Source of the DNA: a bacterium
GTDB taxonomy: Bacteria; Krumholzibacteriota; Krumholzibacteriia; LZORAL124-64-63
NCBI GenBank assembly: GCA_031441465.1
Contig: JANOEP010000026.1
Coordinates: 1-58,122 of the forward strand
Direction of reading: 5' to 3'
DNA length: 58,122 bases
Shown here: positions 10,262 to 26,828 of the stretch, one piece after another
Layout: each line of letters starts with the position of its first letter
Numbering within the stretch: position 1 is the first letter of the stretch
The notes under the pieces: model-generated
Databases searched by the model: none
What the model was told of the DNA's origin: nothing
What the model saw: the letters and a program-made list of their open reading frames with translations, nothing else
Program-made: the position numbers and the translations under genes

Positions 10262-11878
10262 ATGCCCAGGTTCCTGCGCTTATCGGCCGGACTCGCCCTG
10301 CTGGCCTGCGCCGCCGCCGCTTCCGCGGCCGTCATCCACGTGCCCGGCGACTACGCCCAGATCCACGCCGCGGTCCAGGCCGCCGGCGCGGGGGATATCG
10401 TCGAGGTCGCGGCCGGCACCTACGGCGACTGCACCCACCCGACCGAGGGTCCCGGATCGACCCTGGCCTGCGTCATCATGAAGTCGGGGGTCACGCTGCG
10501 GGGCGCCGGCACGGCGGCGACGATCATCGACGCGCAGCTGCTCGGCCGCGGCATCTTCGTCGAGAACGTCGTCAACTGCCGCATCGAGAACCTGCAGGTC
10601 CGCCGCGCGTACGCGGCGGCCTACGGCGCCGGCATCCTGCTGCGTCAGGTCGGCCCGGACGTGAGCGTGACCGACGTCCTGGTGACCCTGTGCACCGACG
10701 GCGGCGTGATCTGCTACAACCACGCCAGCCCGACCCTGACCCGGGTCGACTGCGTGTCCAACAGCGCCAAGCAGGGCGGCGGCCTCGCCATCGAGGAGTT
10801 GAGCAGCCCCCGCGTCGCGGACTGCGACATCCTGGACAACCACGCCCCGAGCGGCGCCGGCGTGTTCATCCGCAACGGCAGCGACCCGCACCTGACCGGC
10901 TGCACCGTGAGCGGCAACACGATCAACGCGGCCTACGGCCAGGGCGCGGGCATCTTCGTCGCGGCCAGCGCCCCGCGGATCGAGCACTGCACGATCTCCG
11001 GCAACACGACCCTGGGCAACGGCGGCGGCGTCGCCTACCAGCTCGGCTCCGCGGGCACCCTGCAGGCCTGCACGATCACCGGCAACCTCGCCGCGCAGAG
11101 CTTCACCTCGGGCGCCGGCATCGCGGTCGACTCGGCCGAGCCGCTGATCGAGGGCTGCCTGATCGCCGGGAACGTCTGCACCGGCTCGTTCAGCGACGCC
11201 GCCGGCGTCCACACCCTGTTCAGCCCGTCCCCGACGCTGCGCAACTGCACGATCGCCGGCAACCAGACCAGCGGCGACGGCCTGGCCGGCGGCGTGATGG
11301 CCCAGTGGGGCAGTTCCCCGACCATCGACCGCTGCATCATCTCCGGCTCGCTCGTCGGCGCCGGCCTCTACTGCGACGGCGGCAGCCCGACGGTCACCTG
11401 CACCGACCTCTGGGGCAACGCCGGCGGCAACGCCCTTTGCGGCGTCGACGGCGGCGGCAACTTCTCGCTCGACCCGCTCTACTGCGCGCCGGGCGACTAC
11501 CACCTGCAGGCCGGCAGCCCCTGCTTCACCGGCTGCGGCGGGGATCTGGTGGGTGCGCCCCTGGGCGCGTGCGGCGCCACCGCGGCGGACGAGTCGCCGC
11601 GGCGCTCGCGCCTGCTGGGCAACCACCCCAATCCGTTCAACCCCAGCACCACCATCGTTTTCGCGCTTGACGCGCCCGGTGCCGCCCTCGTACGTATCAC
11701 CGACGTCTCCGGCAGGACGGTGGCGACTCTCACCCTGGGCGATCTCCCCGCCGGTCGCCACGAGGCGGTCTGGGACGGACGCGACGATGCGGGCCGGCCC
11801 GCGCCGAGCGGCGTCTACTTGTACGAACTCCAGGCTCTGGGCCTGCAGCACACAAGGCGGATGATCCTGATCAAATGA
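10262..11878 (+). CDS. secreted right-handed parallel beta-helix repeat protein with FlgD-Ig C-terminal domain
   Basis: Signal peptide, IHVPGDYAQIHAAV start, many CxIxGN...GGG repeats, GNHPNPFNP...RRMILIK. Confidence 0.85.
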   Translation: MPRFLRLSAGLALLACAAAASAAVIHVPGDYAQIHAAVQAAGAGDIVEVAAGTYGDCTHPTEGPGSTLACVIMKSGVTLRGAGTAATIIDAQLLGRGIFVENVVNCRIENLQVRRAYAAAYGAGILLRQVGPDVSVTDVLVTLCTDGGVICYNHASPTLTRVDCVSNSAKQGGGLAIEELSSPRVADCDILDNHAPSGAGVFIRNGSDPHLTGCTVSGNTINAAYGQGAGIFVAASAPRIEHCTISGNTTLGNGGGVAYQLGSAGTLQACTITGNLAAQSFTSGAGIAVDSAEPLIEGCLIAGNVCTGSFSDAAGVHTLFSPSPTLRNCTIAGNQTSGDGLAGGVMAQWGSSPTIDRCIISGSLVGAGLYCDGGSPTVTCTDLWGNAGGNALCGVDGGGNFSLDPLYCAPGDYHLQAGSPCFTGCGGDLVGAPLGACGATAADESPRRSRLLGNHPNPFNPSTTIVFALDAPGAALVRITDVSGRTVATLTLGDLPAGRHEAVWDGRDDAGRPAPSGVYLYELQALGLQHTRRMILIK

Positions 11879-14800
11879 AACGGGCAGCGCTCACGCTCGC
11901 TCTCGGAATCGGCCTGACGGCGGCGGTCTTCGGAACCGCCGCCGCCGCGGCCGACCAGCGGGCGCACGATTCCTTCGCGGTCCAGGTCGCCGGCGACCGC
12001 ACCCTGGTCACCAAGCTCCCCGCCGCCGCCGACGCGTCCGCCGCGCCGGCGGTCCTGATCGCCCTGCCGCCGGACGCCACGACCTGGTCGGTGAGCCTGA
12101 CCGCGGGCGGCGGCAGCGTGTCCGGCGACGGCCGGCTGCCCCGGCTGCGCGGGCTGCCGATGGCCGTGGTGAACACGGCCGGGCTGGACGACGGCGCCCG
12201 GTTCGAGATCGTGCACGACGGCGACTGGTCCTCGGCCGCGGACGGCCGTCTGCGGTCGCGCGCCTTCGACGCCGCGCTGGGATCCTCGTTCGGCCTGCCG
12301 GCGTCGGCCGCAGCGGGCACCCGCGGCACCTACGTCGTGATCACGACACCCGAGTACGCTCCCGCCGCCGCCCCTCTGCTGGCCTGGAAGCGCGCCAAGG
12401 GTCTGGAAGTTCGCCTGGCGACCACCGAGGAGACCGGCGTCACCAACGTCGCGGTGCGCGATTGGCTGCGTGCCGCCTACGCGGCGTGGGACGCCCCGCC
12501 CGAGTACGTGCTCATCCTGGGCGACGTCGACGTCGTGCCCGCCTGGAGCATCAGCCAGAACGTCACCGACCTGCCCTACGCCCAGATGGACGAGGACGAC
12601 TGGCTGCCCGACCTGATGCTCGGCCGCATGCCCGTCGCGTCGCTCACCGAGGCGCAGACGGTGGTCAACAAGAGCGTGGCCTACGAGCGCGACCCCTACC
12701 GCACGGACGAGGGCTGGCTCACGCGCCAGCTCATGGTCGCCGGCAACTACGGCTCCGACACCCCGGTCAGCACCGTGTCCTGGTGCGGCCGGCAACTGAT
12801 GTCCCTGGGCTTCCAGGCCGCCACCCACGTCTCGTTCCCGCCGCTGTTCAACGGCGTGTTCCCGATCACGCAGGCGCTGCAAGCCGGCGTCTCGATGGTG
12901 GTCTACCGCGGCTGGGCCTACGGCACGGCGGGCTGGGAGCCGCCGCACTTCACGGTCACCGAGATCCCCAACGTGAACAACGGGGCCATGACGCCGGTCG
13001 TGATGAGCTTCGTCTGCCTCAACGGGGACTTCGCCGCCGACGCGCCCTGCTTCGGCGAGGTGTTCCTGCGCCAGGGCACGCCCGAGACGCGCAAGGGCGC
13101 GGTCGCCTTCATCGGCAACGGCGAGCACTGGTCCCACACGCGCTACAACGACGCGATGGCCATCTCGTTCTTCGAGCGCATCACCGACCCGGCCGTCACC
13201 GACCTCGGGTCGCTGATGCTCGCCGGCAAGCTGCGCTTCCTGTCCTACTTCCCGCACGAGCTGGAGTTCGAGGCCACCGGCGAGGAATCCGTCGAGTTCT
13301 ACTTCCACATCTACAACCTGCTCGGCGACCCCGAGTTGAATTTTTGGAAGGGGCCCGTCTCGGAACCCGTGGTCGGGCACGACGCCAACTGCCCGCCCGG
13401 AGCCGACCGCTTCGACGTGACCGTCCTGGAGTCGGACGGCACGACCCCCCTGGCCGGCGCGCGCGTGGGCCTGACGCAGGACGGCGAGCCGGTCGGCGCC
13501 GGCCGGACCGGTCCTGACGGTGTCGCCCGGATTTCCCTGGACGATCTCGTGGCCGGCACGCCGCTGACCGTCACGGTCACCGCGCCCAACCGCTTCGCCG
13601 TGCAGAGCGACGTCGCGGTCGCGTCGCCCGCGGCCCACCTCGCGGTGACGGGCCTGACCTGGGAGAATCCCGTCGGCTACGGCAACGACGACGCCGTGGT
13701 CAACGCCGCCGAGGTCCTGCACGTCTTCCCGGTGGTGACCAACACCGGGACGACGACGGCGACGGGCGTCACGCTGTCGCTGTCCGTCGCGGGTCCCGCC
13801 GGCGTCGAGCACGCGTCCTTCGCCTTGCCGGACCTGCCCGGCGGCGCCGTGCACGCCTGCACGGGCGACGAGTATTTCCGCCTCGGCCTGCTGACCACGG
13901 CCGACGACGGCGCGCTGCTGCGCCTGTTCCTCGACGCGGCCCACGACGGCGCGGTCGACCGCGCCGAGCGCACGCTCACCGTCGGCGGACCGTCGGTCCG
14001 GCTGGCGGGCCTGCTCGTCGGCGGCGACGGCGCGCTGCGCCAGGGACAGTCGAACGCCCTCACGCCGGTCCTGCACAACGCCGGCAGCTTGCCGTTCCCG
14101 GGCGGCCAGGCCCGGCTGAACCTGCTCAGCGCGGGCATCGGCGCCGTCGGCGTGCAGTTCGCGGACGTGCCGGCCATCGCGCCGGGCGCGTCGGTGACCC
14201 TGGCCACGGCGGTGTCGCTCGAGGTGGGGGCGACGGTGCCGACCGGCAGCGCCGCCGTGCTGGAACTCGTCGTCTCCGACGCCGCACCGGCCGACTACCA
14301 GTCCGTGCTGCCGGCGACCCTGCTGGTCGGCGAGATCGACGCCGGCGCCCCGTGCGGCCCCGACGCGCACGGCTACCGGGCGCTGGACAGCGCCGACGCC
14401 GTCGACTACCCCGGCCTGGCGCCCGTCTACCGCTGGACCCACCTGGATCCCGCCCTGGGCGGCGCCGGCGTGCCGGTGACCTTCGCCGTCGACAACGAGG
14501 TGAAGCTGGTCGACCTGCCCTTCGCCTTCTCCTACTACGGCCAGGTCTTCGACGGGCAGATCCGCGTCAGCGAGAACGGCTGGATCAGCTTCGACACCGA
14601 CGACGAGCTCGAGTTCTACAACTGGCCGCTGCCCAGCAGCCACGGCAACCACTCGGTGGTGGCGCCCTTCTGGGACAACTTCGATCCCACGCTCGCGGGC
14701 ACCGGCGGCGTCTTCACGCGCCACGACGCGGCCTCGGGCACCTTCACGATCGAGTGGAGCCGCATGCGCCACTACCAGCCCGAGATCGACGACGTGCAGA

Positions 14801-15606
14801 CCTTCCAGCTGGTGCTGCGCGACCCGGCGCTCCACCCCGCGCCGGGCGGCGACGGCGAGCTGCTGTTCCTCTACCGGCAGGTCCACAACCGCGACACGCT
14901 GCGGCAGTTCGCGACCGTGGGCTGGGAGAGCCCGTCCGAGACCGACGGCCTGCAGCTGTCCTATTCCGACGTCTACGCCCCCGGCGCCGCCCCGATCGGT
15001 CCGGGGCTGGCCGTCCTGCTGACGACGCGGACACCCGTCTATTCGCCCTACACCGCCGAGTTCGTGGCGGAACGGTCGGCGGGCGCGGTCACGCTCTCCT
15101 GGTTGCCCCGCGACGGCAGGCCCGTCACCGGCTGGCTCGTGATGCGCGACGGGGCGGACGGCGCGGTCGCCTTGACGCCGGCGCCGTTGCCCGCGACGGC
15201 GCGCGGCTTCACGGACGGCCTGGCCCCCGCGGGCGACGCCTCCTACCGCCTGGTCGCCCTGCACGCGTACGGGCACCGGTCGGCCGCGGCTTCGGCGACG
15301 GTGACCGCCGCGGCGGTCGTCGACGGCGGCGGGCTGTTCCTGTCGCCCGGTCAGCCCAACCCCGCGCGCGGCGGCGCGACCCTGGCCTTCGGCCTGCCGC
15401 GCGACGGCGCGGCGACGCTGCGGGTCTTCGACCTCGCGGGCCGGCTCGTGCGCACGCTGGTCGCGGGCGACCGGCCGGCCGGCCCGGGCGCGGCCGCCTG
15501 GGACGGGCGCGACGAAGGCGGCCGCGACGCGCCCGCCGGCGTCTACTTCTGCCGGCTCGAGAGCGCGGGTGGCTCGGTGACCCGCAAACTCCTGCTCGTC
15601 AGGTAG
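11875..15606 (+). CDS. secreted C25 (gingipain-like) peptidase-family protein with FlgD-Ig C-terminal domain
   Basis: LLAWKRAKG, YVLILGD, PDLMLGR, YRGW, VCLNGDF/CFGEVFLR (compare RgpB ACVNGDF/CFAEALMR), YNLLGDP; ends RKLLLVR; ATGA overlap with upstream gene. Confidence 0.88.
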   Translation: MKRAALTLALGIGLTAAVFGTAAAAADQRAHDSFAVQVAGDRTLVTKLPAAADASAAPAVLIALPPDATTWSVSLTAGGGSVSGDGRLPRLRGLPMAVVNTAGLDDGARFEIVHDGDWSSAADGRLRSRAFDAALGSSFGLPASAAAGTRGTYVVITTPEYAPAAAPLLAWKRAKGLEVRLATTEETGVTNVAVRDWLRAAYAAWDAPPEYVLILGDVDVVPAWSISQNVTDLPYAQMDEDDWLPDLMLGRMPVASLTEAQTVVNKSVAYERDPYRTDEGWLTRQLMVAGNYGSDTPVSTVSWCGRQLMSLGFQAATHVSFPPLFNGVFPITQALQAGVSMVVYRGWAYGTAGWEPPHFTVTEIPNVNNGAMTPVVMSFVCLNGDFAADAPCFGEVFLRQGTPETRKGAVAFIGNGEHWSHTRYNDAMAISFFERITDPAVTDLGSLMLAGKLRFLSYFPHELEFEATGEESVEFYFHIYNLLGDPELNFWKGPVSEPVVGHDANCPPGADRFDVTVLESDGTTPLAGARVGLTQDGEPVGAGRTGPDGVARISLDDLVAGTPLTVTVTAPNRFAVQSDVAVASPAAHLAVTGLTWENPVGYGNDDAVVNAAEVLHVFPVVTNTGTTTATGVTLSLSVAGPAGVEHASFALPDLPGGAVHACTGDEYFRLGLLTTADDGALLRLFLDAAHDGAVDRAERTLTVGGPSVRLAGLLVGGDGALRQGQSNALTPVLHNAGSLPFPGGQARLNLLSAGIGAVGVQFADVPAIAPGASVTLATAVSLEVGATVPTGSAAVLELVVSDAAPADYQSVLPATLLVGEIDAGAPCGPDAHGYRALDSADAVDYPGLAPVYRWTHLDPALGGAGVPVTFAVDNEVKLVDLPFAFSYYGQVFDGQIRVSENGWISFDTDDELEFYNWPLPSSHGNHSVVAPFWDNFDPTLAGTGGVFTRHDAASGTFTIEWSRMRHYQPEIDDVQTFQLVLRDPALHPAPGGDGELLFLYRQVHNRDTLRQFATVGWESPSETDGLQLSYSDVYAPGAAPIGPGLAVLLTTRTPVYSPYTAEFVAERSAGAVTLSWLPRDGRPVTGWLVMRDGADGAVALTPAPLPATARGFTDGLAPAGDASYRLVALHAYGHRSAAASATVTAAAVVDGGGLFLSPGQPNPARGGATLAFGLPRDGAATLRVFDLAGRLVRTLVAGDRPAGPGAAAWDGRDEGGRDAPAGVYFCRLESAGGSVTRKLLLVR

Positions 15607-15614
15607 GTGGGAGC

Positions 15615-16775
15615 GTGCGGTTCATCGTCCTGTTGCTCGCGGCGGCCACGCTGTTGGGCGTGTGGGAGACGGCGCGGCACCGCCTGACGCGGCGGCGCAT
15701 CCCGCTGCGCGTGCACGTCAACGGCAGCCGCGGCAAGTCGTCGGTGACCCGCCTCATCGCGGCGGGGCTGCAGGCGGGCGGGATCCGCACCTGCGCGAAG
15801 ACCACCGGCTCGGCGGCGCGCTTCCTGCACGCCGACGGCACCGAGACGCCGGTGGTGCGCAACGGCACGCCGAACATCCGCGAGCAGCTGGGCGTCTTCC
15901 GGCAGGCCGCGTCCGAGGGCGCGCAGGCGCTGGTGCTGGAGTGCATGGCCGTGCGTCCCGACCTGCAACGGACCTGCGAGCGCGACATCGTGAACAGCAC
16001 GCTCGGGGTGATCACCAACGTGCGCTCCGACCACCTCGAGGTGCAGGGGCCGCGCCTGGAGGACGTGGCGCGCAGCCTGTCGCAGACCGTGCCGGCGCAC
16101 GCGACCCTGTTCACGGCGGAAGACGTGTTCGCCGGCGACCTGGCCGAGGCGGCGCGGCGACGCGGCAGCGTCTGCAAGCTGGCCGACCCGGGGACGGTCA
16201 CGCCGGCGGACCTGGCGCCCTTCCGTTACGTGGAATTCGCGGAGAACGTCGCCCTGGCCCTGGACGTGTGCGTGGCCGCCGGCGTCGATCGGCGCCGCGC
16301 GCTGGAGGGCATGTGGGGGGTCCGGCCCGACGTGGGCGCCCTGGAGCGCCTGCGGGTCGCCGATCCCGGCGGCGAACTCGTGTTCGCCAACGCCTTCGCG
16401 GCCAACGACCCCGAATCGACGGCGAGGATCTGGCGCACGCTCGGTCTGGACGCGCCCGGCACGCGGTCCGTGATCCTGTTCAACAACCGTGCCGACCGCA
16501 TGCGGCGGGCGCGCGATCTGGCGCCGCTGCTGGGGACCAGCATGAAGGCCGACCACTACGTCCTGATCGGCCAGGGGACGTCCCAGCTGGCCGACATGAT
16601 GCGCGCGGTCCCGCGCGAGCGCATCGTCGACCTGGGCGGCGCCGGCGCGGCCGAGATCTGGACGCGCACGGCCGCCCTCTGCGGCGCGGGCGCGACGGTG
16701 GTGGGCGTCGGCAACATCGGCGGCATCGGCATGGAACTGCTGGCGCTGCTGCGCGAACGGGAGGTGCGCCCTTGA
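15615..16775 (+). CDS. pgsB: poly-gamma-glutamate synthase PgsB/CapB (Mur-ligase fold)
   Basis: N-terminal TM helix; HVNGSRGKSSVTRLI P-loop; KTTG; LECMAV; ITNVRSDH; NAFAANDPEST; GVGNIGG. Confidence 0.95.
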   Translation: MRFIVLLLAAATLLGVWETARHRLTRRRIPLRVHVNGSRGKSSVTRLIAAGLQAGGIRTCAKTTGSAARFLHADGTETPVVRNGTPNIREQLGVFRQAASEGAQALVLECMAVRPDLQRTCERDIVNSTLGVITNVRSDHLEVQGPRLEDVARSLSQTVPAHATLFTAEDVFAGDLAEAARRRGSVCKLADPGTVTPADLAPFRYVEFAENVALALDVCVAAGVDRRRALEGMWGVRPDVGALERLRVADPGGELVFANAFAANDPESTARIWRTLGLDAPGTRSVILFNNRADRMRRARDLAPLLGTSMKADHYVLIGQGTSQLADMMRAVPRERIVDLGGAGAAEIWTRTAALCGAGATVVGVGNIGGIGMELLALLREREVRP

Positions 16776-17245
16776 TCTACCAGGCGATCGGCCTGGGGCT
16801 GGTGATCAGCCTCGTCTTTTCGGAGATCATGGGCTTGGCGGCGGGCGGCCTGATCGTCCCCGGCTACATCGCGATCTACCTCGACCAGCCGCTGCGCATC
16901 GCGGGCACGGTCGTCGCCGCGCTGTGCACCTACGCCACCGTGCGCCTGGTCGGCCGCGTGGTGCTGCTCTACGGGCGCCGCACCCTGGTCTTCTGCGTGC
17001 TGGCCGGGTTCGTGTTCGGCTTCCTGACGCGATACGTGCTGGTGTTCAACGCCGCGCTGGGCACGGGCGTCGACGCGTCGCTCTTCCAGTCCGTGGGGTA
17101 CATCATCCCCGGGCTGATCGCCTACTGGATGCACCGGCAGGGGATCGTCGAAACCCTGAGCTCGATGCTCATGGCGGCGTTCCTGGTCCGCCTGGTGCTG
17201 GTGCTGGCCCACGGAGGCATGCTCATTGATGTCGCGATCGGGTAG
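16772..17245 (+). CDS. pgsC: poly-gamma-glutamate biosynthesis membrane protein PgsC/CapC
   Basis: TTG start overlapping pgsB stop; AGGLIVPGYIA, LYGRR, GYIIPGLIA...RQG motifs. Confidence 0.95.
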   Translation: MIYQAIGLGLVISLVFSEIMGLAAGGLIVPGYIAIYLDQPLRIAGTVVAALCTYATVRLVGRVVLLYGRRTLVFCVLAGFVFGFLTRYVLVFNAALGTGVDASLFQSVGYIIPGLIAYWMHRQGIVETLSSMLMAAFLVRLVLVLAHGGMLIDVAIG

Positions 17246-18353
17246 GAGGCGGCCGCTGATCCTGTTCGGATTGGCGGTGCTGGCGGTGCTGCTGCAGGGG
17301 GCGCTCGAGCTGACGCGCCGCCCCGTGCGTCAGCGCGACTACGCCGAGAAGTTGGCCGCGGCGCAGAAAGCCGACGAGGCCTTCACCACGCTGCGCCGCC
17401 ACCTGCGGATGGAGGGCGCGGAGATCGACAAGGTCAACGACCCCGCCGGCACCGGCCTGGTGGGGCCGGAGTTCAGCCTCATCACCAACGCCCGCGGCGA
17501 CCTCGAAGCCAAGCTCTCCAGTCTGAACCCCAACTGGGCGGCGGTGATGGTGGAGCTGTTCCACCGCGCCGGCCTGCATCCCGGCGACCCGGTGGCCGTG
17601 GCGCTCACCGGCTCGTTCCCCGGTCTGAACGTGGCTGTGTACTCCGCGCTCGAGACCATGGAGCTGGCGCCGGTGGTGGTCACCTCGGTCGGCGCTTCGA
17701 TGTGGGGCGCCAACGACCCCGCGTTCACCTGGCTGGACATGGAGCGCATCCTGCGCGAGGAGCGGGTCCTGCACATCCGCTCGTCGGCGGCCACCCTCGG
17801 CGGCGGCGACGACATGGGCCAGGGCCTCAGCCCCGAAGGGCGGCGCCTGCTCGAGGCGTCCCTGGAGCGCAACGGGGTGCCGCTGCTCGGCTCGCTGAAC
17901 ATCGAGGAGGCCATCGCCAAGCGCATGTCCTTCTTCGACGAGGCGCTGCGCGGCCGCGTGCCGAAGTGCTTCGTGAACGTGGGCGGCGGCGTGGCCAGCC
18001 TCGGCAGCAGCCAGAACCGCATCCTCATCCCGCGCGGCTTTGCCGAGACGCTGGAAGCGAAGAACTGGCCGCGCAAGGGCACGCTCACGCTGATGTCCGA
18101 CCGGGGCGTGCCGGTCATCCACCTGCTGGAAGTCGCCTCGCTGGCCCGCGAGTACGGGCTGCCGGTGGCTCCGGACTACCTGCCCGAACCCGGCGAGGGC
18201 GAGATCTTCGTGAGGGACGGCTACCGCCTCGAACTGGTGGCGGTCTTCCTCGTGTTGTACGGCGCCCTCTGCGCCGTGGTGCTGGCGCCCGAGGTGCGGC
18301 GCAATCTGCTGGGGGCGGTCCGTTTCCGGCGGCGAACGGGAGGTGCGGCGTGA
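17229..18353 (+). CDS. pgsW: poly-gamma-glutamate system protein PgsW
   Basis: DPAGTGLVGPEFSLIT, GDLEAKLSSLNPN, TGSFPGLN, SVGASMWGANDP, NVGGG motifs; follows pgsBC. Confidence 0.88.
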   Translation: MSRSGRRRPLILFGLAVLAVLLQGALELTRRPVRQRDYAEKLAAAQKADEAFTTLRRHLRMEGAEIDKVNDPAGTGLVGPEFSLITNARGDLEAKLSSLNPNWAAVMVELFHRAGLHPGDPVAVALTGSFPGLNVAVYSALETMELAPVVVTSVGASMWGANDPAFTWLDMERILREERVLHIRSSAATLGGGDDMGQGLSPEGRRLLEASLERNGVPLLGSLNIEEAIAKRMSFFDEALRGRVPKCFVNVGGGVASLGSSQNRILIPRGFAETLEAKNWPRKGTLTLMSDRGVPVIHLLEVASLAREYGLPVAPDYLPEPGEGEIFVRDGYRLELVAVFLVLYGALCAVVLAPEVRRNLLGAVRFRRRTGGAA

Positions 18354-19276
18354 CGATCCATCACCGGCGCGGGGCGGCGGCCGCCGCCTGCTTCGTGCTG
18401 TGGTCCCTGGCGGCGACGAACGCGTCGGCCGAGGTGCGTTGGCGGGCGGTCGCACCCCAGGGCGCCCGCGAGCAGGTGTGCCTGCGCATCGACGGCATCG
18501 AGACGACCTACGACAAGCTGCGCTCCGAGACCCCGGCCCTGTACCGCGTGAGGGGGCCGCGCCGCGTCAAGGTGCTGTCGCGCTACGTGTTCGCAACCGG
18601 AGAGGCCGGGCCGGCCGCCGTCACGCTGCGCTTCGCGATCGACGGGCAGGCGGCCCTCGCAGACGCGCAGCGCCTGCAGCCGCGCGAGGGCGCGGCGACC
18701 TGCGGCGGCGCGCCCGCCAGCTCCCTGCACCACAGCTACCTGACGATCCCCGAGGGCTGGCACGACGTGGCGGTCACCCACGTGGCCGCCGCGCCCGGAA
18801 CCGCCGCCGCCGGCTTCACCGCGGTGCGCCTCTTCCGCGAAACGAGCCGCGTCAGCGAGGAGTACGTCAGCCTGTCGCCGGAGCGCTACGCCGGCGTGGC
18901 GACCCTGCAGTACGACAGCGGCGTGCGCTCCACCCTCTACCATTTCGACGCGGACCAGCCGCTGTCCTTCGAGGTCGCGGGACCCACGACGGCCGTGGTG
19001 TGGACCCGCCTGGACTTCGACCACAAGATGAACGGCCGCCAGTCCTACGCCCTGGAGGTGCGGATCGACGGGGCGGTGCTCCGTACCCACCACTACGACG
19101 TCGACAAGCTGGACGCCGCGTCCTACATCGAACGGCCGGAAGTGATGCCCGGGGAACGCAAGTCCCTGCGCGTCCAGATCCCGCGCGGCCGCCACCGGGT
19201 GGAGATCCGCTGCCTGCAGCCGGAATCCTGCGGCGTGGCGGCCGTCATCCGCATCCCGGCAGCCGACCTGCGATGA
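18350..19276 (+). CDS. secreted hypothetical protein with two tandem homologous beta domains
   Basis: GTG overlapping pgsW stop; signal ending ASA; repeated V.GP...V..R..F...IDG...IP.G.H.V units. Confidence 0.75.
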   Translation: MTIHHRRGAAAAACFVLWSLAATNASAEVRWRAVAPQGAREQVCLRIDGIETTYDKLRSETPALYRVRGPRRVKVLSRYVFATGEAGPAAVTLRFAIDGQAALADAQRLQPREGAATCGGAPASSLHHSYLTIPEGWHDVAVTHVAAAPGTAAAGFTAVRLFRETSRVSEEYVSLSPERYAGVATLQYDSGVRSTLYHFDADQPLSFEVAGPTTAVVWTRLDFDHKMNGRQSYALEVRIDGAVLRTHHYDVDKLDAASYIERPEVMPGERKSLRVQIPRGRHRVEIRCLQPESCGVAAVIRIPAADLR

Positions 19277-20388
19277 GGCGCCGGATGGGCATTGCGCTGG
19301 TGGTCGGAGCCGTCGCGGCCGTCCTGTCCGCGTGCGGCGTCGCCGCGGCGGCGGAGCCGGGGACGCGGGCGCGCAAAGCGTCCGCCTGGAAGACGAGCGC
19401 GACCTTCGGACTCGAGACGATCTACGACGACAACTTCCTGCGCTACTCCGACGACTACCTCGACGTGTTCCACGCCGGCACGGACCCCTACAAGTTCAAG
19501 ATCGACCGCCAGGACTGCCACATCCTGGCCCCGAGCTTCGAGGTCGAGGCCCGCCGCGAGCTGATCGCGCTGGGCGAGACGCGGCTGCGTTTCCGCTGGA
19601 AGCGCTGGCAGTACGTCCAGGAGTCGATCAAGACCAACTCCGGCTACTCGTGGTACGCCCGCCAGTTCCTGCCCGGAGGCCGCAGCTTCGAGCTGTCCTA
19701 CAGCTACGCGCCCGAGCAGTATATTCGGCAGCTGTCGGACCAGCCGCCCTGGGAACCACCGAGCGCGCCCCTGGTCTGGGAAGAGTTCCGCTACACGCGC
19801 AACGAATTCGCCCTGGTCTACCGCGACCGGTTCAGCCGCGACCTGACCTGGAAGCTGGACCTCAACCGCACGCTGCGCTACTACAACCAGCCGTTCATCG
19901 AGAACGACATCTTCGCCTGGGGCGCCCGCGCCACGCTCGCTTGGCGTGCACGCGCCGACTGGCGTCTGACCCTGGACTACGGTTACGAGCACGGACCCGC
20001 CCGCGGCTACGACGAGGTTGGGGAGACCCTCGAGACGAGCGACGACTCGGACCCCTCGTACGACCAGGACCTCTACCAGATCGAGGTGGCCTGGTCGCCA
20101 ACCTGGGCGCGCCGCGCGTTCACAACCCTGGCCCTCAGCGGCCAATACCAGGCTTACTGGTACACCTCGCAGAAGAGCCTCGACGCCGATCCGTACCACG
20201 TGGGCCGCAAGGACAACGTCTACGCGCTCGAGCTGACCCTGGCCCGGCCGGTGGCCGCTGGCCTCGACGCCGTGTGCGGTTTCAAGTTCTCCCAGCGCAC
20301 GGTGGACTCGCCGTGGCAGGGGGACATCGCCGAGGACAAGGACTACGACCAGCGCCGGTACTGGATCGGGCTGACCTACAAACTCTGA
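19273..20388 (+). CDS. putative outer-membrane beta-barrel protein
   Basis: Signal peptide; starts GLETIYDDNFLR; alternating aromatic beta strands; C-terminal YWIGLTYKL beta-signal-like strand. Confidence 0.75.
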   Translation: MRRRMGIALVVGAVAAVLSACGVAAAAEPGTRARKASAWKTSATFGLETIYDDNFLRYSDDYLDVFHAGTDPYKFKIDRQDCHILAPSFEVEARRELIALGETRLRFRWKRWQYVQESIKTNSGYSWYARQFLPGGRSFELSYSYAPEQYIRQLSDQPPWEPPSAPLVWEEFRYTRNEFALVYRDRFSRDLTWKLDLNRTLRYYNQPFIENDIFAWGARATLAWRARADWRLTLDYGYEHGPARGYDEVGETLETSDDSDPSYDQDLYQIEVAWSPTWARRAFTTLALSGQYQAYWYTSQKSLDADPYHVGRKDNVYALELTLARPVAAGLDAVCGFKFSQRTVDSPWQGDIAEDKDYDQRRYWIGLTYKL

Positions 20389-20414
20389 CGCGGACCCCGA
20401 CAGGAGCCCTGACG

Positions 20415-22820
20415 ATGCGCATCACCAGTTCGACGACACGGCGTGCGGCCACGGCGGCCGCGTGCGTCCTGGCGGCCCTGCTGGCCGGCTGCGGCGCCGC
20501 CGACCTCTACGAGTCGCCCGAGTCCCCCTTCCACGTGATCGGCCGCGTGCCGCTGCCGAGCGCCAACGAGGGGGTCGCCGCGCTGGGCGACTTCGCCTAC
20601 GTGGCCGGCGGCGAAGCGGGCATCCACGTCGTCGACATCTCGACGCCGGGGACGCCCGTCCTGGTCACGACCCTCAACACCACCAAGTACGCCGGCAACC
20701 TCGAGGTCGTGCGTACCTTCGCCAACGCGACCCTGTCCGACCTGGCGCTCGTGGTGGAGGGCACCGAGGGCATCACCACCTACGACATCACCGACCCCGC
20801 CGGCATCGTCTCCTACGAGCAGGGCACGACCGCGGTGGACGGCCAGCGCGTCTTCATCGAGGAGCCGCAGAACCCCGACGACCCCTGCATCGTCTACCTC
20901 GCCGAGAGCTGGAAGGGGCTGCGCATCTTCGAAACCAACCCCGACTTCCCCGGCGTCCTGGAGTACGGCGGCGTCTTCACCGGCACGCAGGGCTTCGCCA
21001 AGGCCGTGGCCGTGAAGGACGGCTACGCCTACGTCGCCGACGACGAGATGGGCCTCGCGGTGGTCGACGTGCGCGTGCGCATCCTCGGGCAGGTCCGCCA
21101 GGTGAGCTGGGCCGACACGCCCGGCAACGCCCTGGACGTCGCCGTCGACGGCGACTACGCCTTCCTGGCCGACGGCGTCGAGGGGCTGGCGATCTTCCGC
21201 ATCGACGGTGGCGAGACGCCGGTCAAGGTCGCCCAGCTGGACCTGTCGGCCTACAGCCGCTCCCTGGTCGTGGCGCGCGGCTGGGCGCTGCTCTGCGCCG
21301 CCGACGGCGGCGTGCACGTCGTGGACGTCCGCGACCCCGAGCACCCCGTCTACGCCGGCCTCGTCAAGACGAGCTACGCCTCGGACCTCTGCATCACCGC
21401 CGACGGGCACGTCCTGGTGGCCGACCGCTACGACGGCCTGCTGGTGCTGGACGGGCCGTCCCTGGTCGCCGACACCACGCCGCCCGCGCCCGTCACGACG
21501 CTGGCGGCGTCGCCGCAGACGGCCACCCGCGTCGAGCTGTCCTGGCTGGCCGTGGGCGACGACGGCTACTACGGCACGGCCGCCTCCTACCTGGTCCGGC
21601 GCGCCGCGGCGCCGATCGCCGACGAGGCCGACTGGGAGGCCGCCGCCGCGGTCGCCGGCGCTCCCGCGCCGGCGCCGACCGGCACCCGCCAGACGCTCGA
21701 AGCCGCGGGCCTCGAGCCCGGCACGACCTACCACTTCGCCCTGCGCACGCTGGATGACGAGGGGCACCTCTCGTCCCTCTCCAATGACGCTGCGGCGACG
21801 ACGATCGAGGGTGCCTTCCTGCGCCAAGGCAGCGTCGCGCCCGCCCTGGGCGATCTGGCGACGGTCTTCGCTTTCCGCGTCACCTTCGTCGACGACACCG
21901 ACGCGGCGCCCCTGGCGCACGACGTGACGATCGACGGCACGGCCCACGCGATGACCCTCGAATCGGGCAGCCCCGCCGCCGGCGCGGTCTACCTCTACGA
22001 GACCACGCTGCCCGCCGGCGCCCACCAGCACGGCTTCGCCTTCGTCGACGCGCTCGATCGTCCGGTGACCCTCGCGGCGGCCGCCGGACCCTACGCGGGC
22101 AGCGCGGCCTTCGCGATGGGCAGCCCCGCCGCCGAGGTCGGCCGCTTCCCGGACGAGACCCAGCACGACGTGCTGCTGTCGGCGGCGCCGATCGCCGGCG
22201 CCCGCGAGGTGACCCAGGCCGCCTGGAACCTGCGCATGCCGTCGAACCCCTCGTCCTTCGTCGGCGACGACCTGCCGGTCCACAACGTGACCTGGCACCA
22301 AGCCGTCGAGTACTGCAACAGCCTGTCCCTGGCCGAGGGGCGCGCGCCCGCCTACGTGATCGATGGGCCGCTGGTGACCTGGAACCGCGCCGCCGACGGC
22401 TGGCGGCTGCCGACGGAATCCGAGTGGGAGTACCTCTGCCGCGCCGGCACGACCACTTCCCTGTTCAACGGCGAACTCGTCGAGCCGGCCTGCGGCGCCG
22501 ACCCGCTGCTCGAGGCGGCCGGCTGGTACTGCTACAACGCGTCCGGCGGCCCGCGGGCCGTCGGCCTCAAGTCGGCCAACGCCCTGGGCCTGTTCGATGT
22601 CCACGGCAACGTCCGCGAGTGGTGCTGGGACTGGTACGGCCACTATCCGGCAGGCCCCGTCTTCGACCCCGCGGGACCGGCCGACGGCGACCGGCGCGTG
22701 GTCCGCGGCGGCAGCTGGCACTACTACGCCCGCGAGTGCCGGTCGGGGGCGCGCGGCGCCTACTACCCGACTTCGTCGGACGACTTCCTGGGGTTCCGCG
22801 TGGTCCGCAACGGCGAGTGA
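20415..22820 (+). CDS. lipoprotein with LVIVD repeats, FN3-like module and C-terminal FGE-sulfatase (SUMF1/PvdO-like) domain
   Basis: Lipobox LAGC; YAYVAD...GLAVVDV repeats; RLPTESEWEY, GLFDVHGNVREWC, RGGSW, GFRVVR. Confidence 0.85.
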   Translation: MRITSSTTRRAATAAACVLAALLAGCGAADLYESPESPFHVIGRVPLPSANEGVAALGDFAYVAGGEAGIHVVDISTPGTPVLVTTLNTTKYAGNLEVVRTFANATLSDLALVVEGTEGITTYDITDPAGIVSYEQGTTAVDGQRVFIEEPQNPDDPCIVYLAESWKGLRIFETNPDFPGVLEYGGVFTGTQGFAKAVAVKDGYAYVADDEMGLAVVDVRVRILGQVRQVSWADTPGNALDVAVDGDYAFLADGVEGLAIFRIDGGETPVKVAQLDLSAYSRSLVVARGWALLCAADGGVHVVDVRDPEHPVYAGLVKTSYASDLCITADGHVLVADRYDGLLVLDGPSLVADTTPPAPVTTLAASPQTATRVELSWLAVGDDGYYGTAASYLVRRAAAPIADEADWEAAAAVAGAPAPAPTGTRQTLEAAGLEPGTTYHFALRTLDDEGHLSSLSNDAAATTIEGAFLRQGSVAPALGDLATVFAFRVTFVDDTDAAPLAHDVTIDGTAHAMTLESGSPAAGAVYLYETTLPAGAHQHGFAFVDALDRPVTLAAAAGPYAGSAAFAMGSPAAEVGRFPDETQHDVLLSAAPIAGAREVTQAAWNLRMPSNPSSFVGDDLPVHNVTWHQAVEYCNSLSLAEGRAPAYVIDGPLVTWNRAADGWRLPTESEWEYLCRAGTTTSLFNGELVEPACGADPLLEAAGWYCYNASGGPRAVGLKSANALGLFDVHGNVREWCWDWYGHYPAGPVFDPAGPADGDRRVVRGGSWHYYARECRSGARGAYYPTSSDDFLGFRVVRNGE

Positions 22821-22831
22821 CGGGAGCAGGC

Positions 22832-23929
22832 ATGGCCGGCAAGCAGCGTTTCGAATTCATCGACCAGTTCCGCGGGCTCATCGGCGTGATGATGGCCCTC
22901 GGGCACAGCAACTACTACTTCAACGCCGCCTGGCTGAGCCTCGACCCGCTGGACCCGTTCTTCGACAACTTCGGGCAGTTCGCGCTGCGCTACATGGGCT
23001 ACCTCTGCGCGCCCGGCTTCCTGATGATGAACGGCGCCATGATGTACAACTCCTACTGGCGCCGGGTCGCCGGCGGGGAGTCGTCGGGGCGCGCCCGCTG
23101 GGATTTCATCCAGCGCGGCCTGTTCCTGATCGCGGTGCAGCTGATCTGGGTCAACGCGAGCTGGAGCGGTTTCGAGCGGCTGCGCCTGGAGCACTTCGGG
23201 ATCATCGCGACGATCGGCAGCTCGATGCTGCTGCTGGCGATCATGGTCCGCTGGCGCTGGCAGTGGCGGCTGACCGTCGCGGTCGTCATCAGCCTGGTCC
23301 ACCCGCTGCTGCTGCGGATCCCGTACGACGCGAAAGCCTGGACCCACGTCCCGATGCAGCTGTTCATCGACTCGGGTGACTTCAACAAGTACCCGGTCCT
23401 GCCGTGGTTCGCGCTGGCGGCCCTCGGCAGCGTCATGGCCCACTTCTGGTTCGAAGCCTGGCGGGACGGCGCGCAGCGGGCGCGCCGCAGCCTGGCCATC
23501 GGCGCCTCGCTGGTGCTGGCCGCCTGGGGCCTGCGCCTGTGGGGCGGCTCCTACGCCAACATCTTCCCGGCGGGCGAGTTCTTCAGTTGGTCGTTCTTCC
23601 TGGAACAGAAGTACCCGCCCAGCCTGAGCCATCAGGTCTGGTTCGCCGGCGCAGTGATTTTCATGGTGGGTCTGATCGGCCTGATCGGCCTGCGCACGCG
23701 CGCGCTGCGGCCCTTGGGCATCGTCGGGCGGGTGCCGCTGTTCTTCTACGCCGTGCACATCCCGCTGCTGGCGATCTTCACGCGGCTGCTTCCGGACCTG
23801 TACCGCAAGGGCGCGGTCCTGGAATCGTTCATCGGCCTCGCGGGCCTGCTGGCGGTCATGCTGCCGTTGGCGTGGTGGTTCGGGGGCGTGAAGAAGCGTT
23901 CGCGGAACTGGTTCATCAGGATGATCTAG
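22832..23929 (+). CDS. DUF1624 / HGSNAT-like multi-pass membrane acyltransferase
   Basis: RFEFIDQFRGLIGVMMALGH, CAPGF, YPVLPW, KYPPSL, GRVPLFFYAVH. Confidence 0.82.
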   Translation: MAGKQRFEFIDQFRGLIGVMMALGHSNYYFNAAWLSLDPLDPFFDNFGQFALRYMGYLCAPGFLMMNGAMMYNSYWRRVAGGESSGRARWDFIQRGLFLIAVQLIWVNASWSGFERLRLEHFGIIATIGSSMLLLAIMVRWRWQWRLTVAVVISLVHPLLLRIPYDAKAWTHVPMQLFIDSGDFNKYPVLPWFALAALGSVMAHFWFEAWRDGAQRARRSLAIGASLVLAAWGLRLWGGSYANIFPAGEFFSWSFFLEQKYPPSLSHQVWFAGAVIFMVGLIGLIGLRTRALRPLGIVGRVPLFFYAVHIPLLAIFTRLLPDLYRKGAVLESFIGLAGLLAVMLPLAWWFGGVKKRSRNWFIRMI

Positions 23930-26685
23930 CGGACGAGCGTCACCCGCGCGTTCGCGGTCGCGCCCGACCGGTCCTGCAGCCTCACCAGGTACACGCCGGC
24001 GGCCCCGGGCCTGCCGGCGTCGTCCTTCCCGTCCCAGACCGCCTCGCCCTGCACCGCGCCGGCGTCGACGTCGACGTCGGACAACGTCCTGACGCGCCTC
24101 CCCCTGGCGTCGAACACTTCGAGCTTGCTGACACCGGCCGCCGCCGCCGCCCAGCGGATGGTCGTGCGCGGGTTGAAGGGGTTGGGGTGTGCCGAGAGCC
24201 GCGGCGGCGCGGGCGGCGCAGCACCGACGGCCACGAACGTGTTCCCGGTGTCGAAGGTCACGTCGTCGATGAAGAATCCCCGGTAATTGACCGAGTCATC
24301 GGCCTGGAACAACCAGCGGAAGCGGAACGACGAAAGATCGCGGCCCGTGAGGTCGAACACGACCCCGCGCCAGTCGCCCTGCCGCCCGGACCAGCCCGGC
24401 GTCCCGCCCAGGGCGGCGACGCTCTCGTAGTCATAGCCGCCGACGGGTTCGATCACGAGCCACTGCTCGCCCTGCAGGAGTTCCAGCCGGACGCCGTCGT
24501 AGCCGGCCTCGGTGTCGCACCAGAGGTGGAAGCTCAGGTGGAGTTCCGCGGCGCCGGGGAACGCGTAGGGGGGGGAGGTCAGCGTCGAGTACTGGTTGTC
24601 GTTGTAGTCCCCGAAGTAGCCGACGCCCCAGCAGCCGGGCATGCTGAAACACGAATCCGGACCGGCGGGAGCGGCCCCCCACATCCAGGCGGTGCTCATC
24701 GGCGTGAAGCCGCCGAACGTGGTGAACGACTCGTCGGCCGTCGGCAACTCGGCGAACTGCGGGTGGAGGTTGCCGGGCAGGACCTCGGGCATGATGTCGA
24801 TCGCGCGCGCTCCGTATCCCGGCTTGCGATGGAACAGCAGACGGGCGGCGCGGCCCGCCGCCACGCCGGGCAGGCTGTAGACGCCGTCGGCGAACGTTTC
24901 CTCGGGTTGGAGCGGCGTGGCGAGCAACTCGACGCGGACCGCGCCGAGCGGTTCGCCGTTCTCTCCGTGGACCCGACCCGACACCGTCACCTGGGGCAGC
25001 CTCTGCAGCACCACGTCGTGGACCTGGGCCACGCCCGGGGTCACCACCGCCGAGTAGCTTTCCGGCGCGTGGTGGTAACTGTCGAACAGGAAGGAGGCCG
25101 GCCCCGGTTCGGCCGTGTAGTTGTAGCGGCCCAGCGAGTCGGAGATCAGGCTGGACTCGCCGCCCTGGACGGCGATGTCGATCCCGGCGATCGGCAGCAT
25201 CGTCTGGGAATCGACGACGCGCCCGTTCACGTTGCCCACGCTGGTGGAGACGCGGTTCCAGGCGGCGACGAGGTCCGGGCGCGGCCCGACGTGGTCCGGG
25301 TCGGCGGCCTGCGGCGTGCCGGTCGCCACCAGGATGTCCCGCAGGTGGCGGGGGTCGAGCGAGTAGCCGAACTGGGCGCGCGTCATCCCCTGGAGCACCG
25401 CGGCGGCGCCCGCCACGATGGCGGACGCGCTCGAGGTCCCGTTGAAGGCCTGCGTGTACCACGCGTTCTCCGCGAAGCCGGATCCCTGCAGGTCGCCGTA
25501 GCCGCAGGACGCCACCTGCTCGCCCCAGGCCTGCAGGTCGACCCGCGCGCCGTGGTTGGTGAACCACTCGGGCTCGAGGGTGGCCGGTTCCCCGGCGCCC
25601 ACCAGGATGGCGCCCGAATTGCGGACCGCGGGATCGAACAGGCCGGCGTAGGTCGGATCGTCGAGGTCCTGCAGACCGTTGCCGGCCACCTCCACGACGG
25701 TGCGACCGAGGGCCGTCGCGATGCTGATCGCGTCGAAGGTGTCCTGCCAGTACTCCATGGGGATGTAGCCGTAGTCGCCGGTGCCGTTGGCGTTGGGTCC
25801 CGCTCCCTCCACTTCGATCAGGATGACGTCGCCGTACGCGGTCGCGCCGGTGGCGTTGCTCACGGCGGCGGAGGTGCTCAGGCTGTGGATCGAGACGCCG
25901 CCGACCAGGCAGGACGGGGCCACGCCGCGCACGCCCTGGCCGTTGTCGGCGCCGCGGATCACGCCGAGCGTGGCGGTGCCGTGGTTGCGCCAGGCCTGAT
26001 CCTGGATGGAGCCGCCGGCGGTGTGGACGGGGGCGGTCAGGTCCTCGTGGGTCCACAGCCAGGCGCCCTCGATGTCCAGCACGCGCACGCCCGAGCCGCG
26101 GCCGCCGGGTTGCGCGGCGACCGCCAGCGCGTTGATGCCGGCGGGCGGATTGCCGAGGTAGCCCTGCAGGCTCGAGTAATCGGCGGTCGTCAGCAGGTCC
26201 GGGCCGGCAGGCGCCGACGCGGCGGCGAGGCGGCCCGCCGGCCGCACCTCCGGTTCGAGGTAGGCGGTCGCGACGTCCGGGCAGGCCCGCAGGGCGGCGA
26301 CGACCCGCAGCAATTGGTCGCGGGTCGCCGGGTGCGCGGGTTCCAGCCGGGCGTAGGTGTTCAGGTCGGGAAGTTCGCGGCCGCCGAGGGCGTGGGCCGT
26401 GGTCCGCTCGGCGGCAAGTTCCCCGGCCTCGCGCGGGAACAGGCGCTTCACGGCGAACCCGGGGGCGGATCGCTCCAACTGACCCGCCACGCGGGAAGCG
26501 GCGGCCGGGGCTGACGTTTTCAGCCCCTCGTCGGTGAAGGTCACGCCGGAGGTCTCGTTCAGCTTGACGATGATCCGTCCGGAGGGCAGGGCCGTCTGGC
26601 CGTCGCCCTGAACGCCGGGGGGCGCCCAGGCCGCGAGGGCCGGGGCGGCGAGCGTCAGGATGAGCGCGATGAGGCGGCGGCTCAC
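23926..26685 (-). CDS. secreted S8 (subtilisin-like) serine peptidase with carboxypeptidase-regulatory and FlgD-Ig domains
   Basis: Triad motifs VLDIE, HGTATLG, AGNG, FNGTSSAS; AHPNPFNP...RVTLVR; GTG start with signal peptide. Confidence 0.9.
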   Translation of the reverse strand: MSRRLIALILTLAAPALAAWAPPGVQGDGQTALPSGRIIVKLNETSGVTFTDEGLKTSAPAAASRVAGQLERSAPGFAVKRLFPREAGELAAERTTAHALGGRELPDLNTYARLEPAHPATRDQLLRVVAALRACPDVATAYLEPEVRPAGRLAAASAPAGPDLLTTADYSSLQGYLGNPPAGINALAVAAQPGGRGSGVRVLDIEGAWLWTHEDLTAPVHTAGGSIQDQAWRNHGTATLGVIRGADNGQGVRGVAPSCLVGGVSIHSLSTSAAVSNATGATAYGDVILIEVEGAGPNANGTGDYGYIPMEYWQDTFDAISIATALGRTVVEVAGNGLQDLDDPTYAGLFDPAVRNSGAILVGAGEPATLEPEWFTNHGARVDLQAWGEQVASCGYGDLQGSGFAENAWYTQAFNGTSSASAIVAGAAAVLQGMTRAQFGYSLDPRHLRDILVATGTPQAADPDHVGPRPDLVAAWNRVSTSVGNVNGRVVDSQTMLPIAGIDIAVQGGESSLISDSLGRYNYTAEPGPASFLFDSYHHAPESYSAVVTPGVAQVHDVVLQRLPQVTVSGRVHGENGEPLGAVRVELLATPLQPEETFADGVYSLPGVAAGRAARLLFHRKPGYGARAIDIMPEVLPGNLHPQFAELPTADESFTTFGGFTPMSTAWMWGAAPAGPDSCFSMPGCWGVGYFGDYNDNQYSTLTSPPYAFPGAAELHLSFHLWCDTEAGYDGVRLELLQGEQWLVIEPVGGYDYESVAALGGTPGWSGRQGDWRGVVFDLTGRDLSSFRFRWLFQADDSVNYRGFFIDDVTFDTGNTFVAVGAAPPAPPRLSAHPNPFNPRTTIRWAAAAAGVSKLEVFDARGRRVRTLSDVDVDAGAVQGEAVWDGKDDAGRPGAAGVYLVRLQDRSGATANARVTLVR

Positions 26686-26828
26686 GTTCGACTCCGGTGG
26701 TTGCGGGCACGGAGGCCGGTCGGAGTCCTCCGGACTTGTGGGATCATCCCGGAAGGTGCTATCACTATACAGAGACGGCGCGGGCTCGCGCAACCGACCA
26801 CGGCCGGATCCTCCAGGAAGGTCACATC

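Follow-up and report, generated by a model that had tools for sequence, protein, structure and literature searches.

Poly-gamma-glutamate (PGA) synthesis is understood in Bacillus, that is, in cells bounded by a single membrane. In the part of its description covered here, the PGA capsule model of CapsuleFinder comprises CapABCDE only (PMC5542703), and a 2013 review, in the text available, gives Fusobacterium nucleatum as the sole Gram-negative PGA producer, the term 'outer membrane' being absent from that text (PMC3815933). Here we report on a locus of nine genes (g1 to g9) from a bacterium of the phylum Krumholzibacteriota, in which genes for the synthase proteins PgsB and PgsC are followed by genes for a predicted periplasmic protein (g6) and a predicted outer-membrane beta-barrel (g7). 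The locus lies in a stretch of 58,122 nucleotides (contig JANOEP010000026.1 of assembly GCA_031441465.1), the whole of which is called the window below. The PgsB and PgsC families are known, those of g6 and g7 unnamed. On balance, we consider it probable that the nine genes code for a machinery spanning the cell envelope, which makes a PGA-type polymer and passes it out of the two-membrane cell.

Organization of the locus

All nine genes are read from the forward strand between positions 10262 and 23929 of the window. At the centre of the locus, g3 (15615-16775) encodes PgsB, the ATP-dependent amide ligase of poly-gamma-glutamate synthase; the protein contains a Mur_ligase_M domain and passes the equivalog model TIGR04012 with 398.3 bits (cut-off 222.7 bits), the match covering model positions 3-378 of 380. 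The membrane subunit PgsC is encoded by g4 (16772-17245) and likewise passes its equivalog model (TIGR04011, 120.1 versus 96.45 bits; Caps_synth_CapC, E 8e-33). The product of g5 (17229-18353) passes the subfamily model TIGR04332, which carries the NCBIfam name 'poly-gamma-glutamate system protein', with 326.6 bits against a cut-off of 100, and is the only copy of this family in the genome. The shorter name PgsW, which we use for this protein and its orthologues, stems from the original prediction, a reading made from the letters of the window without database searches, and is unconfirmed. As read from its sequence, g5 has a hydrophobic segment at each end and a large domain between them. It has no Pfam family match, and its profile met only chance-level ClpP matches (E ~0.7) among solved structures. 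The next two genes belong to unnamed families: g6 (18350-19276) encodes an N-terminal anchor or signal segment followed by two jelly-roll domains that resemble carbohydrate-binding modules (CBM), and g7 (19273-20388) the predicted 14-stranded barrel. Pfam and NCBIfam scans assigned neither of them to a family, and a look-up in the Atlas gave 'hypothetical protein' clusters only, with no named cluster for either.

The synthase genes are preceded by g1 (10262-11878), which encodes a secreted right-handed beta-helix protein (Beta_helix, E 9e-27) with a C-terminal sorting domain of the type IX secretion system (T9SS; FlgD_ig, E 4e-13), and by g2 (11875-15606), which encodes a C25 protein of gingipain fold (Peptidase_C25, E 6e-54), also with a T9SS sorting domain. 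The last two genes are g8 (20415-22820), coding for a lipoprotein in which an LVIVD beta-propeller is combined with an fn3-like and an FGE-fold domain, and g9 (22832-23929), coding for a polytopic membrane acyltransferase (HGSNAT_cat / Acyl_transf_3, DUF1624 type). The genes are tightly packed. Start and stop codons overlap by four bases at 11875 (ATG), 16772 (TTG), 18350 (GTG) and 19273 (ATG), g4 and g5 overlap by 17 bases, and gaps of 8, 26 and 11 bases separate g2 from g3, g7 from g8 and g8 from g9, respectively. The coordinates thus confirm every junction in the original prediction, and the Pfam and NCBIfam scans agree with the gene families named there, g6 and g7 being without family. The window has a G+C content of 71%, and long open frames are plentiful on both strands. 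At this composition many long frames are spurious and start codons are a matter of choice; the nine forward frames are those with family matches or conserved orthologues, and the frames of g6 and g7 are backed by orthologue alignments.

In the PgsBCA(E) and CapBCADE systems of Bacillus, just as here, equivalogs of PgsB and PgsC stand side by side in this order, and next comes a further membrane protein, whose extracytoplasmic domain is large. However, the third gene here belongs to TIGR04332 and not to PgsA/CapA, the locus has no CapD-type transpeptidase, the host has an outer membrane, and g1, g2 and g6 to g9 are without counterpart in Bacillus. None of the nine locus proteins matches PGA_cap, the family of PgsA/CapA. 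Since neither PgsA nor CapD is found in the locus, the locus as such is not of the Bacillus CapBCADE type. The earlier statement that CapA and CapD are not recognizable therefore stands for the locus, as judged by Pfam, but not for the genome. A genome-wide search found one strong PGA_cap protein (G000:C73:15353-18500; L002, L003), which is unlinked to the locus, exceeds 1000 amino acids and unites PGA_cap with PKD and a T9SS sorting domain. The PGA_cap domain is known from CapA, which is membrane-bound; this protein would carry it in a secreted form or at the cell surface. Two genes of the CapD-type G_glu_transpept family were also found, both on other contigs; this family is a common housekeeping one, present in 8 of 14 control genomes. 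Canonical capA and capD genes elsewhere were considered as an explanation. The PGA_cap protein is large, secreted and multidomain, the gamma-glutamyltranspeptidase genes are unlinked, and the conserved linkage described below is explained by neither, though either may have a role.

Conservation within the phylum and beyond

TIGR04332 is present in 73 of the 208 genomes of the phylum; the family to which the window belongs has it in 56 of 90 genomes, and another family in 12 of 12. Forty pgsW loci of the phylum, picked for long contigs and a spread of genera, were searched with the nine window proteins. All nine genes occur in the same order and on the same strand in 27 of these loci, and four more (L015, L016, L032, L041) follow the same order up to the end of the contig. 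One locus from a third family (L042) holds only pgsBCW with weak g6 and g7, and eight hold a pgs(B)CW set that is more distant and lack the remaining genes. The 31 concordant loci represent 18 genera of two families. Outside the window's genus, identity to the window is 37-49% for g6 and 31-61% for g7, so that recent common descent of one block does not account for the shared order; in the locus L007, which is from the window's genus, the values are 84% and 91%. In the 27 complete loci g1 is the first and g9 the last gene of the block, and in most loci a C25 match divergent from g1 sits upstream of it. A strong match to the g6 profile was found in 68 genomes of the phylum, one copy in each, and it adjoins pgsW in the rows compared (e.g. 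G009). TIGR04332 is also present in 66 of these 68 genomes, and in the other two g6 stands at the start of a contig. Hence we conclude that the locus is a conserved unit and not a chance neighbourhood. The linkage anticipated in the original prediction is borne out within the window's own phylum. Two genomes, G105 (L008) and G145 (L022), carry beside a full nine-gene locus a second, distant pgs(B)CW set that is 35-50% identical and without accessory genes.

A wider scan covered one genome per species with a five-sequence PgsW alignment as query, and the best 80 of 401 relatives by similarity to that query were taken; their loci were searched with profiles built from the window's phylum only. 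The titles of the records name Zixibacteria, Ignavibacteria, Chlorobi, Bacteroidota, Bacteroidales, 'Eisenbacteria', Krumholzibacteriia, Latescibacterota, TA06, Neomarinimicrobiota, Fidelibacterota, Marinimicrobia, Cloacimonadota, UBP14 and one Desulfobacteraceae, submitters' labels being variable. Where at least 1200 bases of room follow pgsW, g6 comes directly after it in 63 of 72 loci, and where there are at least 3300 bases, both g6 and g7 follow in 49 of 69. The other genes were counted over all 80 loci regardless of contig ends: a g8 relative occurs in 35, a C25 protein in 31, g9 in 18 and a full-length beta-helix in five, all five of which have the window-type block. Relatives of g8 elsewhere mostly consist of the LVIVD propeller only (profile positions 1-340) and come from genes of 340-430 amino acids, and the C25 gene lies upstream in Bacteroidales-type loci and downstream in others. 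These counts identify pgsB-pgsC-pgsW-g6-g7 as the conserved core. The propeller lipoprotein, the C25 protein and the acyltransferase are frequent companions, and the nine-gene form is this phylum's version. Beyond the phylum, the expected linkage holds for g6 and for g6 with g7 and extends to the C25 protein in a part of the loci; the beta-helix gene is linked only in the version found in the window's phylum.

Some loci without g6 also carry genes of interest. In L104 a C25 cargo protein and in L105 a beta-helix cargo protein is encoded next to pgsW. In two UBP14-type loci (L114 and L126), pgsBCW is followed by genes for an MscS-like protein, an S8 protease, a DUF1573-thioredoxin protein and a barrel of the TonB-dependent-receptor type, an accessory set that may be a second solution to export.

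A predicted periplasmic protein tied to the synthase and to the barrel

In 8 of the 31 loci, distributed over three genera, g5 and g6 are joined in one frame without a stop. In the translation of the fusion, a short basic loop connects the hydrophobic stretch at the C-terminus of g5 with the likewise hydrophobic N-terminal part of g6, after which the two g6 domains follow, an arrangement that fits a topology with both large domains in the periplasm. In a library of 1.84 billion representatives, the g6 family counts 980 at E <=0.001 and 189 at E <=1e-30; four of the best 150 relatives are 671-693 amino acids long and have the g6 match in their C-terminal half. An AlphaFold2 model computed from an alignment of 32 sequences (predicted local distance difference test, pLDDT, 91.8) shows two jelly rolls, both all-beta, behind an N-terminal helix. 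Of these, domain 1 is similar to CBM51 modules (Z ~10) and domain 2 to CBM35/CBM36 (Z ~9.4), and the weaker structural matches include the periplasmic cellulose synthase subunit BcsB (Z 9.4 and 8.4). These scores are middling for a common fold, and the model speaks for a binding-module-like architecture, not for a function. A charge test for a basic binding module or pore, with a mean of +6 for g6 and +0.8 for g7, is too weak to be used either way.

The product of g7 was modelled by AlphaFold2 as a barrel of 14 strands (pLDDT 89.3, predicted template modelling score 0.81). Its closest folds are CymA (4d5b, Z 24.8 over 284 residues, root mean square deviation 3.5) and OmpG (2f1c, Z 20.9 over 239 residues, root mean square deviation 3.3), and comparison with the exopolysaccharide porins PgaA, BcsC and PelB gave Z scores of 13.9-14.5. 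The porin family BBP2_2, at rank 13 in the Atlas look-up, is a lead only. With an N-terminal hydrophobic segment and a closed antiparallel barrel, g7 has the features of an outer-membrane channel as far as prediction goes, in line with the barrel assignment made from the sequence originally.

Twenty-two of the 31 g7 orthologues carry, ahead of the barrel, a signal peptide, a domain of ~120 amino acids and a linker rich in Lys, Arg and Pro. The profile of this N-terminal domain is homologous to domain 1 of g6 (hhalign 97.8%, E 1e-12), which means that the same module is tethered to an inner-membrane subunit and to the outer-membrane barrel. Together with the fusion to PgsW, this indicates that the protein starting at 18350 belongs with pgsBCW, as had been proposed. 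To judge from the alignments, the module of the barrel is lost in the window's genus and a few others. The signal segment of the window's g7 (19273-19390) ends in a lipobox-like 'LSAC', and that of L007 in 'LAAC'; the barrel may be lipidated in this genus. Runs of Lys and Arg stand directly before the first barrel strand in L019 (eight Lys in a row), L021, L031, L039, L042 and others and could form a basic collar at the periplasmic mouth. The window's g7 has few basic residues at this position.

Accessory proteins and type IX secretion

The C25 domain of g2 (PF01364, 184 bits) covers profile positions 1-373 of 374, and among solved structures the protein matches RgpB (1cvr, E 3e-24) and PorU (6za2, E 4e-7). 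In the alignment with RgpB, whose catalytic dyad we take to be H211 and C244, Trp347 of g2 (motif YRGWAYG) falls in the column of H211 and Cys381 in that of C244. Trp and Cys hold these positions throughout the alignment of 32 sequences, which comprises g2 of the window and 31 orthologues. In the pgs-linked C25 proteins from the wider loci, own phylum and others alike, the His is absent from 35 of 36 (Trp in 24, Glu in seven, Tyr in four) and the Cys is present in 36 of 36. Because g2 is without the canonical His, the proposal that it anchors or processes the polymer cannot rest on ordinary gingipain chemistry, and we found no support for that proposal. The protein may have no catalytic activity, or a different base may take the part of the His. 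It was also considered as a T9SS sortase of the PorU type and rejected, its score with NF033707 being 41.1 bits against a cut-off of 420.

Parts of a T9SS are encoded in the genome: SprA scores 470.8 bits (cut-off 200), a PorU-like gene distinct from g2 and located on a different contig reaches 403 bits, and there are 40-odd matches to the sorting-domain part of the PorU model. With TIGR04183, g1 scores 23.5 and g2 27.1 bits against a cut-off of 23, which in a genome with a T9SS marks both as type IX cargo. SprA and the many sorting-domain matches make export of g1 and g2 to the surface plausible. Compared with solved structures, g1 matched only through its FlgD-like sorting domain.

The lipoprotein g8 carries an 'LAGC' lipobox and matches LVIVD (E 2e-19) and FGE-sulfatase (E 3e-35; PF03781, 122.7 bits), fn3 staying below the cut-off. 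The nearest structure to its FGE-fold domain is the non-enzymatic TvpA of T. denticola (2y3c, 102 bits), PorK and FGE following with ~54 bits each. The membrane protein g9 scores 51.3 bits with HGSNAT_cat (cut-off 22) and 33.6 bits with Acyl_transf_3 (cut-off 31). Acylation by the DUF1624 protein and binding or trimming of the polyanion by the beta-helix protein had been proposed from the family names only, and we do not uphold either role; the beta-helix protein is moreover linked in only five of the 80 wider loci.

Flanking genes and expression

A second C25 gene (4917-10238, reverse strand) is divergent from g1 and encodes 1773 amino acids with Propeptide_C25, C25, CarboxypepD_reg and T9SS sorting domains. 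It is 31% identical to g2 over 973 columns, an alignment that takes in a shared region of ~220 amino acids after the Ig-like domains. 'YRGW' replaces the His motif and the Cys is kept. This gene is probably a companion of the operon. On the other side, convergent with g9, lies a gene for an S8 subtilase (23926-26793, reverse strand) with CarboxypepD_reg and a T9SS sorting domain. The G+C content drops to 0.60 at positions 1-2000 of the window and to 0.64 at 56001-58000, compared with ~0.71 elsewhere.

A scan of the window for sigma-70 promoters gave 0 sites, a result that is uninformative where the phylum uses other promoter types, and of seven terminator-like sites (3.2 expected) none between genes was convincing. 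Three RNA libraries from two studies contain contigs with 90-99% likeness to the window; these extend over pgsB to g8 and span the junctions g3/g4, g4/g5, g5/g6, g6/g7 and g7/g8. Only contigs were available, and a contig that spans two genes is not the same as one transcript; stretches without cover (e.g. 18417-18617 in X18 and X20) carry no meaning. The contigs are weak evidence; they are compatible with expression of the operon of a close relative, and carry-over of DNA could also have produced them.

A model for synthesis and export and its alternatives

The model starts from what is observed, namely the gene families, their conserved order, the g5-g6 fusion, the domain shared by g6 and the barrel, and the predicted folds. 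From these we infer the product, the direction of transport, all contacts between the proteins and the roles of g1, g2, g8 and g9. As its family membership suggests, PgsB would polymerize glutamate at the inner membrane with PgsC and the TIGR04332 protein as partners, and the three would also translocate the chain there; the TIGR04332 protein would stand in for PgsA/CapA. Anchored in the inner membrane beside the TIGR04332 protein, g6 would take up the chain in the periplasm with its two jelly-roll modules, and g7, a monomeric 14-stranded barrel, would be the exit through the outer membrane. Inner and outer parts would share one module, since in most lineages a g6-type module sits on the periplasmic end of the barrel. 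The lipoprotein g8 would stand at the outer membrane with the barrel, its LVIVD propeller being the widely conserved part, and g9 would use a cytoplasmic acyl donor to modify the polymer or an acceptor. As type IX cargo, the beta-helix protein g1 and the His-less C25 protein g2 would act on the surface polymer or hold it. Measured against the complete Gram-negative PGA pathway of the original prediction, the conserved unit, the synthase families and the links between g6 and the barrel hold up, the roles of the C25 protein, the acyltransferase and the beta-helix protein are not supported, and export is a matter of probability.

Several findings weigh against export of PGA by all nine proteins. 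The case for the polymer, for its export and for contacts between the proteins is built on sequences and models. With a mean net charge of +0.8 over 32 orthologues and of -9 in the window, the barrel is not basic, and the g7 sequence gives no clear sign of an electropositive pore through which a polyanion could pass. Pfam detected no tetratricopeptide repeat or other known periplasmic scaffold in the locus. The gingipain-type His-Cys dyad is absent from g2, and PGA offers no hydroxyl to an O-acyltransferase or an acyltransferase-3 enzyme. Seven genomes of the phylum have TIGR04332 without g6, and the phylum-built profiles found no g6 in 9 of 72 and no g7 in 20 of 69 wider loci; the synthase can thus exist without these partners. 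Finally, neither set of loci was random, the 80 being those most similar to one query, and kin within the 40 and within the 80 are not independent.

Alternatively, the polymer might stay in the envelope, periplasmic or bound to the outer membrane, with g6, g7 and g8 holding or organizing it and no exit channel. Such a polymer might, for instance, act as a buffer for cations or osmotic stress, or form a layer to which type IX cargo is anchored. As a pair of binding-module-like domains, g6 bears no sign of a conduit, the barrel is without basic bias and with its 14 strands could also be an anchor, and two type IX cargo proteins are co-operonic. However, the nearest structures of the barrel, CymA and OmpG, are open channels, the g6-type module on 22 of 31 barrels suits a hand-over from inner to outer membrane, and a polymer confined to the periplasm would be out of reach for g1 and g2 at the surface; we therefore regard retention as unlikely. 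About as doubtful is a product that differs from plain PGA, i.e. a modified or different gamma-linked polyamide or a conjugate, such as an N-terminally acylated chain, a chain attached to lipid or glycan, or one built on protein, with g9 and the C25-like protein modifying or attaching it. A membrane acyltransferase ends the operon in the 27 complete loci and occurs in 18 of the 80 wider ones, although on plain PGA no acceptor group is obvious. In addition, PgsA is replaced by the TIGR04332 protein, and a C25 subfamily that keeps the Cys and not the His may follow a chemistry different from proteolysis. Yet PgsB and PgsC score well above their equivalog cut-offs, and no glycosyltransferase or lipid-carrier enzyme is found among the nine genes.

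Whether all nine genes take part is a separate matter. The functional unit might be pgsB-pgsC-g5-g6-g7 only, g1, g2, g8 and g9 being co-regulated envelope genes that do not act directly on the polymer, and to this we assign a minor chance, though one that deserves attention. The five genes are the most widely conserved part (49 of 69 loci), the companions are rarer (g8 35, C25 31, g9 18 and beta-helix five of 80), and the side on which the C25 gene lies, upstream or downstream, varies by phylum. Against this stand the fixed order and four-base overlaps through 18 genera, the C25 and beta-helix cargo beside pgsW even in loci without g6 (L104, L105), and the common trend to His loss in pgs-linked C25 proteins across phyla (35 of 36). 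At the other extreme, Fibrobacteres-Chlorobi-Bacteroidetes bacteria might share an undescribed envelope-spanning polyamide secretion system in which stacked copies of the jelly-roll module join the inner- and outer-membrane halves and a His-less C25 protein, delivered by type IX secretion, handles the product at the surface, an extension that we deem improbable as a whole. It is similarly speculative that the C25 protein works like the sortase PorU, not as a protease, attaching the polymer to the surface or cargo to the polymer, and it would be a long shot to take the nine-gene form of the window for the most complete version of such a system. Export of a PGA-type polymer across both membranes remains the reading that we hold to be probable.

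Significance and comparison with known systems

In a literature search from which subscription journals were excluded, we found no paper describing such a system, which agrees with the original prediction. The search returned nothing for 'PgsW' together with PGA, nothing linking pgsB or pgsC to the relevant phylum or to T9SS, only an unrelated paper for the NCBIfam name of TIGR04332, and, among the papers listed, none joining Krumholzibacteria and polyglutamate. Export of PGA across a periplasm and an outer membrane is undescribed in the literature searched, and the locus offers candidates for each step. It further brings to light two unannotated protein families with confident models that are tied to the synthase by fusion and by a shared domain. 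Core-gene loci carry the titles of many phyla that are common in sediments, sludge and the ocean, and should the system prove real, the polymer could be widespread on their cell surfaces and in the extracellular matrix of the environment. The His-less C25 subfamily presents the gingipain and PorU field with a separate puzzle.

With gingipains and PorU, g2 has the C25 domain and the position of the catalytic Cys in common, and like them it is a type IX secretion cargo; it differs by Trp at the position of the His. The barrel g7 is alike in fold to CymA and OmpG, which are 14-stranded monomeric channels, with a sequence identity of only 9-10%. CymA and OmpG are sugar uptake channels, whereas g7 orthologues mostly add a periplasmic jelly-roll domain and a Lys/Arg-rich linker.

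In its logic the locus resembles the synthase-dependent exopolysaccharide systems for alginate (Alg8/44-AlgK-AlgE), cellulose (BcsAB-BcsC), poly-N-acetylglucosamine (PgaCD-PgaA) and Pel (PelB/C), in which one operon brings together an inner-membrane polymerase, a part that binds the polymer in the periplasm, a dedicated barrel in the outer membrane, a lipoprotein and an acyltransferase for modification. Structural comparison places BcsB among the matches of g6 and PgaA, BcsC and PelB among those of g7. Barrels of 16-18 strands with a tetratricopeptide-repeat or lipoprotein scaffold mark the exopolysaccharide porins AlgE, PgaA, BcsC and PelB; the g7 model has 14 strands and is nearer to CymA and OmpG, Pfam detected no tetratricopeptide repeat in the locus, and a sequence relation to the exopolysaccharide systems is absent. 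Polymerization is by a glycosyltransferase in the exopolysaccharide systems, whereas the polymer here would be a polyamide made by an ATP-dependent ligase.

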